This document shows positions 1,382-10,645 of a stretch of DNA of 10,655 nucleotides, in pieces. Source of the stretch: a virus (Duplodnaviria > Heunggongvirae > Uroviricota > Caudoviricetes); IMG/VR virus record IMGVR_UViG_2690316115_000011, positions 1 to 10,655 of that record; one strand, written 5' to 3'. Both the position numbers and the translations under genes were made by a program. The notes under the pieces were generated by a model. That model was not told where the DNA came from and ran no database searches. It saw nothing but the letters and a program-made list of their open reading frames with translations. How positions within the stretch are numbered: the stretch's first letter is position 1; each line of letters opens with the position of its first letter.

Positions 1382-1601
1382 TCACAACGACTCTGCTTTT
1401 ACGGGTAAGCCATCGCGCCCGATGAAAACTTTAATCATGCAGTCGGTAATGCATGTTTTTGTTGTGAAGTTACGAATATAGAGTTTTCTCTTTTCAATAT
1501 TGTTTGCTGAAGCGATATATGTCCGACCTTCATGAAGAACATAATCGCCAGGCGTCACGCACTGACGTGGTATTTCATCAGTTCCGAAGTGATGAGCAAT
1601 C
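1382..1601 (-). CDS. Small protein, 73 aa from the internal ATG ([15 protein letters not shown]...); possibly a Kil-type host-division inhibitor (KilR-like)
   Basis: The ORF track start is a GTG; the ATG at revcomp 1599-1601 is preceded by GGAG at 8-nt spacing. The size and position in the leftward early operon of a lambdoid prophage match Rac KilR (73 aa), but I cannot verify the sequence from memory. Confidence 0.45.
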
Positions 1602-2060
1602 ATAATTATCTCCATTTTCACAAATGAACTTTGTTGATGCGGTGCCTGGTGCCTCCAGGTGGCGTTAACCAGTTAACAATTAACGCCGGGTCAGGGGACG
1701 ATGACTTTCCGTGACATCCTGTCGGTTTAACTGTTCCGCGTGCGCTGAGCCGCATTCACCGCATCACAAAATTCACTTTAAAAAGGGCGGACATCAGCAA
1801 TCGGCAAACCGATATCCGCCAAGGGTTACACACAGCAATGTTGTTATTCACAACCGGAAGCGCACGGTCGAAGAAATCTAACGACAATCCTTCTATGGGA
1901 AAGAGTCTTCGCCTCGCGCTTTCGTGTAGTACCCTGGCTTTTCAGGGTAATGTCTGTTCAGTAAAGTGAGAGTGCCGGAACTCACCCGTGTCCGGCGCAC
2001 GATCTCCACCTCACCCGTGGAGAACTCCTCAACTACAAACCCCGTAAGGAGAGTGAATTT

Positions 2061-3346: not shown

Positions 3347-3730
3347 TCACCTCGCCGTCAGTTGTTTTGATTTCCGGTAGCCTGCCGCGTAAATGGCTAC
3401 GTTTGGAAGACATACACCAGTTTCTGGTTGCTTATGTCCAAACTCATTCGCGTACACAATGGCTGCTCGCTCCAGATTGTGTCTGTATTCTTTCTGTTGC
3501 CAGATCACGTCCTGTGCCATGAACTTAATTGGCTTAGCGTCTTCTATGCGCTCAGGCGTTTCGTGAGTACCTTTAGCCTGAATCTGCGCTCTGCTTAGAG
3601 TAGGGCGGTGTAATACTTCTGAACTTATTGCTTCTTCGCGGGCCAGCACGCCGTTAGCTAATGCCTTTGCCTTTAAACGCTCACGACGACGAGAACGTGA
3701 ATTGCCTTTGAACTGAGTTCTGCGTGTCAT
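3347..3730 (-). CDS. N: N-type transcription antitermination protein (non-lambda allele, Arg-rich N-terminus; resembles Stx-phage H-19B/933W-type N from memory)
   Basis: First gene downstream of pL/nutL. N-terminus MTRRTQFKGNSRSRRRERLKAKALAN is an arginine-rich motif. AGGAGG lies 6 nt upstream of the ATG (revcomp 3728-3730). 127 aa. Confidence 0.8.
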   Translation of the reverse strand: MTRRTQFKGNSRSRRRERLKAKALANGVLAREEAISSEVLHRPTLSRAQIQAKGTHETPERIEDAKPIKFMAQDVIWQQKEYRHNLERAAIVYANEFGHKQPETGVCLPNVAIYAAGYRKSKQLTAR

Positions 3731-3978: not shown

Positions 3979-4041
3979 AGTATCACCGCCAGTGGTATTT
4001 ATGTCAACACCGCCAGAGATAATTTATCACCGCAGATGGTT
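3979..4041 (-). promoter_or_regulatory. Lambda-type OL1-OL2-OL3 operators with pL promoter
   Basis: OL1 tatcaccgccagtggta (3981-3997), OL2 caacaccgccagagata (4005-4021), OL3 tatcaccgcagatggtt (4025-4041). On the minus strand the pL -35 TTGACA is revcomp of 4002-4007 and the -10 GATACT is revcomp of 3979-3984. Confidence 0.85.
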
Positions 4042-4190
4042 ATCTGTATGTTTTTTATATGGATTTATTTTTTGCAGGGTTGAGTGGCTTGGGAGGTGAT
4101 CGAGAGATCTGAATTGCGATGTTTAGTGAGTTGTATCTATTTATTTTTCAATAAATACATTTGGTTATGTGTCTTTAGGTGGGGGGGTGA

Positions 4191-4219
4191 GGCAAAGAAA
4201 ACCCGGCTCTGTGGCCGGG
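4191..4219 (-). terminator. Intrinsic terminator ending the cI-operon transcript (timm-like)
   Basis: Minus strand cccggccacagagccggg (6-bp GC stem) followed by ttttctttgcc, immediately downstream of the stop of the 253-aa gene (4228). Confidence 0.7.
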
Positions 4220-4227
4220 AATAACAT

Positions 4228-4989
4228 TTAGGAATCAAGGTCAGGTAGCATGATTTTCTCAATCAACGTCAATGCCCTTTGGTCTCGTTCAGCAAAATAT
4301 TTAGGAGCGTACTGAGGCAGCCACACTTCGTTGAAGTGTTGTTTGAAATCTGCAAGATATTCGTTTGGGTATAGACGTACCGGGAATGTCCGGCCATCTG
4401 GGTACTCATGGTTATATGTTGGGAATGTCTTCGGCTCAACCCCCCGGTTGTCACGGAGCCATTGCGAGAAAACCCTACCCTCTGAAATATCAGGGACCAT
4501 TTTTTCTGGCAGCGTATATCCGGCCTGTTCAAGTGGCGCAACCAAGTTAAACGTCAGTTCATTAAGCATAGAAAAGTGCGTATGAGGAACTCTGCCTCGG
4601 TTTGTCATATACCGCTTAAGGTGGATAGGGAGTTCGGCAGGCGCTCTTTCACCTGACATCCACTCACGCACCCATCTCGATACTTGCACTGCAAATTTTG
4701 GAGATAGCCACTGAGCTAAATTAATTGCGATGTCTGGATGAACCCAAGTCCCTTGATTCTCTGCTCTTCCGCCTTTAAATGATTGAATTAACTCCGATAT
4801 GGGAATCCCCATATCGCGTGATAATTCATCAAAAAAATCTTGTGTTGTTTTTAGTCGTGTATAGTCAGCAAGTAGCTTCCCCGCAGACTTGCACATCGCG
4901 GTGGCATTGATGTATCCGTCTTTGGTGCGAAGATGGATGACTTCTCCATCAACTTCTCTAGCGATTAATGCAAGTTGAAACTGTGTCAT
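4228..4989 (-). CDS. KilA-N/APSES-like domain protein, 253 aa, with uncharacterised C-terminal half; occupies the rexA-rexB position; candidate exclusion/abortive-infection gene
   Basis: ORF track. Start is 31 nt after the cI stop with SD AGGATGA. Residues ~1-105 show KilA-N/APSES-like motifs (INATAMCKSAGKLLADY ... GGRAENQGTWVHPDIAINLAQWLSPKFAV), comparable from memory to the yeast Mbp1 APSES core. The rest is unrecognised. Confidence 0.75.
   Translation of the reverse strand: MTQFQLALIAREVDGEVIHLRTKDGYINATAMCKSAGKLLADYTRLKTTQDFFDELSRDMGIPISELIQSFKGGRAENQGTWVHPDIAINLAQWLSPKFAVQVSRWVREWMSGERAPAELPIHLKRYMTNRGRVPHTHFSMLNELTFNLVAPLEQAGYTLPEKMVPDISEGRVFSQWLRDNRGVEPKTFPTYNHEYPDGRTFPVRLYPNEYLADFKQHFNEVWLPQYAPKYFAERDQRALTLIEKIMLPDLDS
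4795..4816. repeat. 22-bp near-palindrome cgatatgggaatccccatatcg inside the KilA-N gene (codes DMGIPIS)
   Basis: 9-bp perfect inverted arms CGATATGGG/CCCATATCG. Matches 21 of 22 positions with the palindrome at 10624-10645. Confidence 0.9.
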
Positions 4990-5020
4990 AAATCATCCTA
5001 TTACGTGAAAAATAAAACAA

Positions 5021-5737
<717 letters not shown>

Positions 5738-5744
5738 TTAAATC

Positions 5745-5808
5745 TATCACCGCAAGGGATAAATATCTAACACCGTGCGTGTTGACTGTTTTACCTCTAG
5801 CGGTGATA
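5745..5808. promoter_or_regulatory. Lambda-type OR3-OR2-OR1 operators with divergent pRM and pR
   Basis: OR3 tatcaccgcaagggata (5745-5761), OR2 taacaccgtgcgtgttg (5768-5784), OR1 tacctctagcggtgata (5792-5808). pR -35 ttgact (5782-5787) and -10 gataat (5803-5808). Confidence 0.9.
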
Positions 5809-6470: not shown

Positions 6471-6540
6471 TATTCAGGCAGGGCATGGAGCAATACACGG
6501 GAATAATTCTGCCACATCTGGAAGAATTTCGCCAGCAACA

Positions 6541-6690
6541 ACACCAACCGCAGCAGCCTGAAGCCGATTGGGTTAACCCGGAGATACCGGGACCGTCTGT
6601 GAAGATGTGCAGTCACACCAATGTGCAGTCACACCAACCGCAGCAGCCTGAAGCCGATTGGGTTAACCCGGGAGATACCGGGACCGTCTG
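6541..6690 (+). repeat. Two ~60-bp direct repeats (6541-6599 and 6631-6690) with an embedded GGGTTAACCC palindrome; a 16-nt tandem repeat tgtgcagtcacaccaa x2 at 6606-6637
   Basis: acaccaaccgcagcagcctgaagccgattgggttaacccgg(g)agataccgggaccgtctg occurs twice, differing by one inserted g. Confidence 0.85.
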
Positions 6691-6723
6691 CGGTATGGAG
6701 TAAATCTTGTATGCGAGGGGACT

Positions 6724-7800
6724 ATGCGTAATTACGCAACAATTTCACCTCAGTTCTGGTTAGGCGATACAGGGCGAAAACTAAGGAAGTCTGGTCCGGA
6801 ATGTATGGTAGTGGCGTTGTATATGATGACCTCGCCTCATTCCAATATGCTGGGCCTTTATTACCTGCCTGTTTTGTACATTGCTCACGAAACCGGACTT
6901 GCTCCTGAAGGGGCTTCTAAGGGGCTTCAAATGGCTTGCGAGGCTGGTTTTTGCAGCTATGACCATGATTCTGAGGTTGTATGGGTGCATGAAATGGCAG
7001 CATGGCAGGTTGGTGAATCGCTGAAACCTGGCGATAACCGTTGTGCTGGGGTAAGAAATGAATATTCCGCGTTGCTGGAAAATCCTTTTTTATCATCCTT
7101 TTATGATAGATATAAGGATGATTTCCACCTGGATGTCAGACGTGAATCATGTCGGAAAATTGAAGCCCCTTCAGAGCCCCTTTCAAGCCAAGAACAGGAA
7201 CAGGAACAGGAAAGGGATAAAACCCTTCTGGTCCATGGCGAAAAAATCGCCACGGACCCACAGGGGGATTTTTGTCCTGTTCTGACTGAACGTCCAGGAC
7301 CAGCTGGCACGACACCGGAAGCAGATTCCGGGCGTTGTGTGCAGCAGGTGCTGATCGTCGAACCGGAGCAACAACGCCAACCGCAGCAGCCTGAAGCCGA
7401 TTCCGCGATGAGCGGGAAGCCGATTGGGTTAACCCGGGCGATGCCGGGACCGTCTGCGGGACGAGTTGATTATCCTGACGTGTTCGAACGGGTCTGGCGT
7501 GAATATCCGCATCGGGCAGGGTCAAACCCGAAGAAATCCGCGTTCAATGCCTGGAGGGCCAGATTACGCGAAGGGGTGTCACCGGATGTCGTGCTGGATG
7601 GCGTGAGGCGTTACGCAAGATACCTGGAGGCTACCGGGAAAGCGGGAACTGAATTTGTTCAGCAGGCATCGACGTTTTTTGGCCCGAACAGGAATTTCGA
7701 AAATCCGTGGTCGCTGCCGAAGGCTGGCGCAGTCAGCCTGCGTTGCGTGAATCACATTTCTGAACCGGACACCGAAATTCCGCCGGGTTTCAGGGGGTAA
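6724..7800 (+). CDS. Replication initiation protein (O-like, non-lambda; YdaU/replisome-organiser-like by position and motifs), 358 aa
   Basis: ORF track. SD GAGGGG before the ATG. Position after cII and directly upstream of the DnaC-like gene. Low-complexity acidic linker SSQEQEQEQE. Family assignment is from memory. Confidence 0.75.
   Translation: MRNYATISPQFWLGDTGRKLRKSGPECMVVALYMMTSPHSNMLGLYYLPVLYIAHETGLAPEGASKGLQMACEAGFCSYDHDSEVVWVHEMAAWQVGESLKPGDNRCAGVRNEYSALLENPFLSSFYDRYKDDFHLDVRRESCRKIEAPSEPLSSQEQEQEQERDKTLLVHGEKIATDPQGDFCPVLTERPGPAGTTPEADSGRCVQQVLIVEPEQQRQPQQPEADSAMSGKPIGLTRAMPGPSAGRVDYPDVFERVWREYPHRAGSNPKKSAFNAWRARLREGVSPDVVLDGVRRYARYLEATGKAGTEFVQQASTFFGPNRNFENPWSLPKAGAVSLRCVNHISEPDTEIPPGFRG
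7373..7456 (+). repeat. Third, diverged copy of the 60-bp repeat inside the O-like gene, containing a short internal duplication of gaagccgatt
   Basis: acgccaaccgcagcagcctgaagccgatt[ccgcgatgagcgggaagccgatt]gggttaacccgggcgatgccgggaccgtctg; the bracketed 23 nt is absent from the upstream copies. Confidence 0.8.
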
Positions 7801-10623: not shown

Positions 10624-10645
10624 CGATATGGGAATTCCCATATCG
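10624..10645. repeat. Perfect 22-bp palindrome cgatatgggaattcccatatcg
   Basis: The two 11-nt halves are exact reverse complements. Differs by one base from the copy at 4795-4816. Confidence 0.9.

Follow-up and report, generated by a model that had tools for sequence, protein, structure and literature searches.

We analysed a 10,655-nucleotide (nt) stretch of viral DNA (Caudoviricetes; IMG/VR record IMGVR_UViG_2690316115_000011), referred to here as the window, and the gene that directly follows its lambda-type cI repressor gene. By sequence homology, this open reading frame (ORF; 4228-4989, minus strand; 253 amino acids; RefSeq WP_000191544.1, "KilA-N domain-containing protein") is a divergent member of the BstA family, in which a canonical KilA-N domain is joined by a short linker to a BstA C-terminal domain. 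By analogy with characterized BstA proteins, it is probably a prophage abortive-infection determinant. Inside the KilA-N coding sequence we identified an inverted repeat (dyad) that is conserved across phyla with compensatory changes in its arms and that has not been described previously. Tentatively, we propose that this dyad could be the cognate double-stranded DNA site of a dimer of the KilA-N domain that it encodes, and the equivalent of the BstA self-immunity element aba.

The KilA-N / APSES-type DNA-binding domain occupies residues 13-112 (4654-4953, minus strand) and was recognized by Pfam with an E-value of 8.2e-27 (93.6 bits, against a cutoff of 23.8), in line with an initial annotation that had read KilA-N motifs from the sequence. 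The C-terminal ~145 amino acids, which that annotation could match to nothing, contain a BstA-like C-terminal domain (residues ~120-250; 4240-4632, minus strand) that was found by PADLOC, PHROG, BLASTP and PF26567. The protein matches phrog_6287, "BstA abortive infection system, replication inhibitor", over residues 1-252 (model 6-301 of 304; E 1.8e-82). Each half alone matches this model collinearly (E 4e-28 for the N-half and 7e-50 for the C-half), and the C-half matched no other PHROG in the search. BstA of the Salmonella prophage BTP1 matches the same model with E 2e-150. The PADLOC BstA model covers residues 120-237 (E 2.5e-20), and BLASTP aligns residues 133-251 with BTP1 BstA at 29% identity (E 5e-15). 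Profile-to-profile alignment with hhalign (30 relatives of the window protein against 28 BTP1-type BstA) gave a probability of 97.8% over 111 columns (E 7.6e-13), with the motifs P..HFS..NE, VPDIS.G, H.YPD and YP...L..F common to both subfamilies. PF26567 (precomputed; UniRef name "BstA-like C-terminal domain") is present on every listed homolog of both subfamilies, including BTP1-type BstA; in BTP1 BstA the C-terminal domain spans residues ~156-307. The C-half had no match in our local Pfam scan because the local copy of Pfam lacks the PF26567 model.

An AlphaFold (AF2) model has two well-folded domains separated by a low-confidence linker at about residues 113-120 (mean predicted local distance difference test score 87.7, predicted template modelling score 0.52). 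A sequence search of solved structures returned weak matches to Mbp1 for the N-domain and none for the C-domain, and an NCBIfam search with the protein gave no match. KilA-N was the sole Pfam match, with no KilAC or ANT domain identified, and there was no match to Rex or kinase models in Pfam or PADLOC.

The family comprises 2,748 members at E-values of at most 1e-5. Identities of 53-63% are kept across Proteobacteria, Verrucomicrobiota, Bacteroidota, Spirochaetia, Nitrospirota and the Candidate Phyla Radiation (CPR), which indicates purifying selection, and 61 residues are invariant in the family across phyla. Homologs with 53-60% amino acid identity occur in Gracilibacteria, Peribacteria, Spirochaetia, Nitrospirota and Armatimonadota (e.g., loci L132, L163, L137, L147 and L156), and such cross-phylum conservation is unusually high for a phage accessory gene. 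The gene is under-annotated: GenBank and RefSeq call it "hypothetical" or "KilA-N domain-containing", and the BstA-family identity adds to these labels. Automated defence finders may overlook it, as the PADLOC model covers the C-domain alone. We found no mechanistic follow-up study of BstA in the literature searched.

The dyad, CGATATGGG-GATT-CCCATATCG (4795-4816), is recovered by a repeat search. It has perfect 9-base-pair (bp) arms and lies in codons 58-65, within the KilA-N domain. It came to light when the window allele was aligned with a second allele of ~78% nucleotide identity: the two are nearly identical in DNA over a stretch of ~70 nt that has the dyad inside it. Where the amino acid is the same, codon identity reaches its highest value, 0.70, in this stretch; the rest of the gene has 0.3-0.5. 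In relatives, the consensus sequence is a perfect 22-bp palindrome, CGATATGGGAATTCCCATATCG. We surveyed 80 distinct sequences taken from viral contigs and species-level genomes; 45 of them carry the dyad at exactly this position with 8-11 of 11 pairs, against an in-gene background with a mean of 2.8 and a maximum of 7-10. No report of the dyad sequence was found in the literature searched.

The arms have changed together. Lineages with compensatory changes carry the arm variants CCGAAACGGGAATTCCCGTTTCGG, GGTCCATGGGAATTCCCATGGACC, CCGATGCCGGAATTCCGGCATCGG and TCGATATCGGTATACCGATATCGG, and compensatory changes are found in 9 of 12 dyad pairs. Residues 60 and 64 change with them, in the combinations that complementarity predicts (M-I, A-A, T-V, V-T and I-I), and in all 45 dyad-bearing sequences the third base of codon 60 is complementary to the synonymous third base of Pro63. 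Among these 45 sequences, 91.7% of cells are paired (75.5% after shuffling), 69 cells have double changes (18 after shuffling) and the covariation score is 0.41 (0.14 after shuffling). The signal is also present in the 80 unselected sequences (67% against 54% of cells paired; covariation score 0.30 against 0.15). None of 500 shuffles attained the observed paired, double-change or covariation values, and controls in which the position was slid had at most 50% of cells paired.

In three whole phage/prophage genomes the dyad is present as a single copy per genome and its half-sites occur elsewhere at chance frequency. This argues against an operator of the regulon type, which we rejected, and for a cis-linked site. 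No extra dyad copies were identified within the ±2.5-3 kilobase (kb) flanks of 160 loci. Three loci that lack the intragenic dyad (L103, L119 and L161) have instead a same-armed dyad located 7-14 nt beyond the stop codon: TCGATATCG-TTTAAA-CGATATCGA, TCGATATCG-TGATCA-CGATATCGA and CCGATGCCG-AGATAC-CGGCATCGG. At L103, a separate terminator (GC hairpin and T tract) is present downstream of the relocated dyad. Apart from these three cases, a search for the dyad elsewhere in genes without it at the usual codons revealed ordinary GC-rich terminators only.

Covariation of this kind is equally compatible with pairing in RNA, and the palindrome may act as a hairpin with a 9-bp stem and a 4-nt loop that influences mRNA stability, processing or translation, an alternative that we regard as possible though somewhat unlikely. 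The predicted folding energy is about -14.5 kcal/mol (z-scores of -4 to -4.5), and the relocated copies lie between stop codon and terminator, so they would still be part of the mRNA. However, covariation extends to the central -2/+2 pair (A:T to T:A in each of 4 cases; Fisher p = 1e-4), which a hairpin could not form, since just 2 nt would be left for the loop. Two of the three relocated copies also have a palindromic centre (TTTAAA and TGATCA). G-U wobbles are not enriched (6 of 46 non-Watson-Crick stem cells, against a random expectation of ~17%), an Rfam search at the dyad returned no family, and the encoded domain has a DNA-binding fold. The -2/+2 covariation, the lack of G-U enrichment and the relocated same-arm dyads speak more for a double-stranded DNA site than for an RNA hairpin.

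The genomic setting of the gene bears on its function. On IMG/VR contigs, copies with at least 92% amino acid identity immediately follow, in the same orientation, at least 10 different repressors. Each of these repressors combines helix-turn-helix and Peptidase_S24 domains and is 16-62% identical to the window cI. Such a recurrent position within the cI transcription unit, seen with at least 10 immunity types, is in keeping with a lysogen-expressed function. The gene was identified in 139 of 5,426 complete E. coli genomes (22 at 95% or higher nucleotide identity and 117 at ~78%), and the complete cI-gene-pL arrangement in 18 E. coli genomes. In other lambda-immunity prophages of E. coli the slot between cI and pL encodes DUF1828, NYN or PIN proteins, an SDH-family Clp-fold serine protease or a HicA toxin. 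The slot is a hotspot of candidate defence cargo.

All copies of at least 96% identity keep ~60 nt of upstream sequence, including a non-coding relic of the lambda cI 3' end, GTGGCCTGAAGAGACGTTTGGGTGA. The spacer and the final ~25 nt of cI are also conserved in other immunity contexts, where they bound the gene cassette on the left. The relic (-60 to -1 of the gene) is present even where the real repressor is unrelated (L006, L007, L011, L012, L019, L022-L025, L028, L029, L032, L037, L038 and L040), and it marks the recombination boundary by which the gene moved between immunity types. An independently conserved 5' element (-60 to +45) was considered and rejected; the 5' comparison revealed the cassette boundary and cI relic alone. 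In relatives of 80-89% identity (L053, L059, L060, L061 and L062), ~50-80 nt upstream of the gene, the motif ACACACAGCGCG precedes a small hairpin whose sequence changes appear compensatory (aatcCG..CGgat vs aatcCA..TGgat).

In the window, the cI gene (5021-5734, minus strand; 237 amino acids) is of the lambda immunity type, with ~97% DNA identity to the cI genes of lambda and HK97; its counterpart in E. coli ML35 is labelled a LexA family protein in RefSeq. A pRM-like promoter (TAGATA-17-TAGATT; 5741-5769, minus strand) was read from the sequence and ends 6 nt before the cI ATG. We take it to be pRM from its identity with lambda pRM, and it is the presumed lysogenic promoter for both cI and the BstA-family gene. 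A promoter consensus scan did not pick up this site, as expected for a weak, activator-dependent promoter. The 31-nt spacer between the two genes (4990-5020, minus strand) carries a Shine-Dalgarno sequence, AGGA at 4996-4999, 6 nt before the ATG of the gene, and no promoter, hairpin or terminator was detected in the spacer by a sequence scan. The transcription unit is closed by an intrinsic terminator (4193-4219, minus strand), CCCGGCCACAGAGCCGGG then TTTTCTTTGC, with a stem at 4202-4219 (6 G-C pairs and a 6-nt loop) followed by the T tract TTTTCTTTG. Beyond the terminator are pL and the OL operators (3979-4060, minus strand; promoter scan and sequence reading). The pL-like promoter, TTGACA-17-GATACT at 3979-4007, has a consensus score of 10/12 and is flanked by OL operators, whose sequences lie just upstream of it, and the operator-like repeats TATCACCGC/CAGAGATA are readable there. 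The ORF for N (3347-3730) lies downstream of pL. This layout, including the 253-residue minus-strand ORF with its own Shine-Dalgarno sequence 31 nt after the cI stop, the terminator and OL/pL beyond it, is as the initial annotation had described it.

BstA was described by Owen et al. (2021; PMC8585504) as the product of a single prophage gene downstream of cI that is highly expressed in the lysogen and causes abortive infection by blocking replication of superinfecting phage DNA. The same behaviour was shown for BstA-Ec (E. coli NCTC10963) and BstA-Kp (K. pneumoniae Kp52.145). Every BstA locus carries a cognate DNA element, aba, that protects the induced prophage from its own BstA; in BTP1, the only case in which it is sequence-defined, aba comprises 63 bp (-29 to +34) with terminal CCCGCC direct repeats, and BstA-aba pairs are reported to be variant-specific (PMC8585504). 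The authors also noted synteny with lambda rexAB and cited the cI-N region as a mosaic hotspot (PMC8585504). The core idea of the initial annotation, a repressor-linked single-gene abortive-infection system, is correct in kind and already known. Its proposal of a lysogen-expressed exclusion determinant in the rexAB slot, with a DNA-binding half and an effector half, is supported by homology and synteny; the novelty that it implied does not hold, as the family, its abortive-infection function and its location after the repressor date from a 2021 publication (PMC8585504).

We predict the following sequence of events. The pRM transcript that makes cI would read straight into the BstA-family gene and end at the terminator, and, judging from this anatomy and from BTP1, the lysogen would make the protein constitutively. 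If BstA of BTP1, BstA-Ec and BstA-Kp are a guide, the trigger would be the start of lytic DNA replication by another phage. The protein would then localize to the invading phage DNA and stop it from replicating, and the death of the infected cell, with no progeny released, would protect the lysogen population, as was shown for homologs. An induced prophage would itself need self-immunity, which in BTP1 is provided by aba within the bstA locus. Here the equivalent may be the dyad, which is single-copy, cis-linked and symmetric (9+4+9 bp). A dimer of the protein's own KilA-N domain may bind it, and amplification of the dyad on the replicating prophage may titrate the protein or switch it off.

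Several observations count against this reading. Regarding the protein, the PADLOC match covers only the C-domain (model 149-271 of 292) and scores 71 bits, compared with 412 for BTP1 BstA. The window protein is ~50 amino acids shorter than the tested BstA proteins (~250 vs ~300), and the N-domains of the two subfamilies could not be aligned profile-to-profile by hhalign. The abortive-infection phenotype is known for the ~300-residue proteins, and its extension to the ~250-residue subfamily is by analogy. The ~78% allele, the commonest in E. coli (117 genomes), is antisense in the nin region beside hokD, so linkage to a repressor is not obligatory. Nonsense and frameshift alleles also circulate. 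One of them, G340T (E114 to stop, at the interdomain linker), leaves a KilA-N-only ORF and is shared by at least 10 loci (L005, E. coli H5, 4039-4800; viral contigs L063-L069, L072 and L075), behind lambda cI and behind a different repressor. In the viral contigs this allele has an extra 2-nt deletion at gene nt 633-634. This allele may be either a pseudogene that is spreading or a KilA-N-only form under selection.

Regarding the dyad, 35 of the 80 surveyed sequences ("group B", motif QTGLPEQQ) lack it. It also occurs, at aligned codons and with lineage-specific arms, in KilA-N genes with unrelated C-termini, from a podovirus (10/11 pairs), a Bacteroides LoVEphage (8/11), Planktothrix PaV-LD (8/11) and Synechococcus S-SRP02 (9/11) (L167-L170: MW202478, OY731444, NC_016564 and MW822601). 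In MW202478 it is the best palindrome in the entire 43.7-kb genome. The dyad is therefore not specific to BstA self-immunity. It differs in form and place from aba, being a 22-24-bp inverted repeat at codons 58-65 rather than a direct-repeat element at -29 to +34, and it is common to proteins of ~55-60% identity, whereas aba pairs are variant-specific.

The fusion of the same KilA-N clade and dyad to unrelated C-termini, and the nin-region copies outside the lysogenic operon, would also be accommodated if the protein regulated the phage's own development (as a transcription or replication regulator, or in an antirepressor-like role) and the dyad were an autoregulatory operator or roadblock. 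The N-domain alone also matches phrog_129, "transcriptional regulator". We consider this improbable: the C-half is specifically a BstA domain, whose three tested carriers are abortive-infection proteins (PMC8585504), the gene lies in the cI transcription unit behind at least 10 immunity types, its close homologs are not antirepressors, and the Pfam scan identified neither a KilAC nor an Ant domain. That the gene is a decaying, functionless moron whose palindrome is kept by mutational template-switching (quasi-palindrome correction) alone would suit the shared G340T allele with its further deletion (at least 10 loci) and a widespread 36-nt relic (below), but is very improbable given that the window allele is intact, that 53-63% identity and 61 invariant residues are kept across phyla, that the dyad is retained despite constraining 4-5 amino acids, and that in three lineages it lies outside the coding sequence, where template-switching within the gene does not explain it.

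The 36-nt relic is an orphan copy of the dyad. A perfect copy, CGATATGGGAATTCCCATATCG, lies at 10624-10645 of the window, in the intergenic region that separates a small ORF from hokD, at a distance of 5.8 kb from the gene. It is centred in a 36-nt match to the nin-type gene, with the gene parts on both sides lost, and it is a minimal relic of a second (nin-region) gene copy that retains exactly the palindrome. The same context is found upstream of hokD in E. coli ML35, and a survey of 5,426 E. coli genomes detected it in 667 (1,457 places, at most 5 per genome), including O157:H7. It is far commoner in E. coli than the gene itself (667 vs 139 genomes). We identified no such context in deposited phage genomes (INPHARED).

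Taken together, a self-referential pairing of protein and site that extends across phyla and phage types, an aba-like switch in BstA-type proteins, and orphan copies that serve as decoys form a combined proposal that we hold to be speculative. The BstA paper left two questions, the target of the KilA-N-type domain and the way in which a short DNA element in the locus turns the protein off. For this domain the dyad is a precise candidate ligand with phylogenetic support. If the proposal is correct, bacterial and phage KilA-N domains in general would have their first defined DNA target. It would also suggest an anti-defence decoy role for orphan sites in other prophages, and the copies in 667 E. 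coli genomes (e.g., upstream of hokD in O157:H7) would let other lambdoid prophages evade this defence. The dyad and its orphan copies lift the gene above a routine homolog.

Other features of the window were also noted. The window is 100% identical to the E. coli ML35 chromosome (2165932-2176586) in all three segments compared, and the immunity region is 99.8% identical to that of Escherichia phage PhiR5_2; the "PhiR5" of a bioRxiv paper was set aside as an unrelated phage name. Two sub-threshold Rfam matches lie between the kil-like region and N: DicF at 1785-1834 (minus strand; 29 bits, gathering score 48) and STnc100 at 1589-1783 (minus strand; 28 bits vs 47). Near the replication genes, a repeat of ~85 nt is present in three copies that are 89-97% alike (within 6534-6693 and 7367-7459). 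Two copies are just upstream of a replication-initiator-like ORF of 358 amino acids (6724-7800) and one is inside it. Every copy contains AACCCGGG(A/C)GAT(A/G)CCGGG, and the repeats are possibly origin iterons.

In comparison with known systems, the window protein resembles BTP1 BstA, BstA-Ec and BstA-Kp in combining an N-terminal KilA-N-type domain and PF26567 in one protein. As for the tested BstA, its gene is immediately behind the prophage repressor and co-oriented with it, has its own terminator, occupies the rexAB slot between cI and pL/N, and is widespread in Gram-negative prophages. It differs from BTP1 BstA in having a canonical Pfam KilA-N domain (E 8e-27), where BTP1 BstA has no Pfam KilA-N match, and the C-domains share just 29% identity. 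Like aba, the dyad is a short, single-copy DNA element inside the defence gene's own locus, partly or wholly coding and inherited with the gene; unlike aba, it is also present in KilA-N genes without the BstA C-domain. A repeat search at this locus identified no aba of the BTP1 type, with terminal direct repeats bracketing the start codon.

The likeness to lambda RexA/RexB and to Stk of phage 933W is one of position and logic, a lysogen-expressed exclusion function in the same slot and co-transcribed with cI. There is no sequence or domain relationship. RexA/RexB pairs a sensor with a membrane protein, and the window slot carries one gene, for a soluble protein with no membrane component; the analogy is positional only. 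Among APSES/KilA-N proteins, yeast Mbp1 and S. pombe Bqt4 are eukaryotic transcription or nuclear-envelope factors, and the role of the phage P1 KilA N-terminus and of similar phage KilA-N proteins is unclear. We know of no APSES/KilA-N protein with a binding site embedded in its own coding sequence. Sites inside the gene of their own binder are found in lambda O (ori iterons), P22 gp3 (pac) and B. subtilis Spo0J (parS). These systems are unrelated to the one described here, in which binding is hypothetical; what the dyad would share with them is a cis site inside the coding sequence of its proposed binder.

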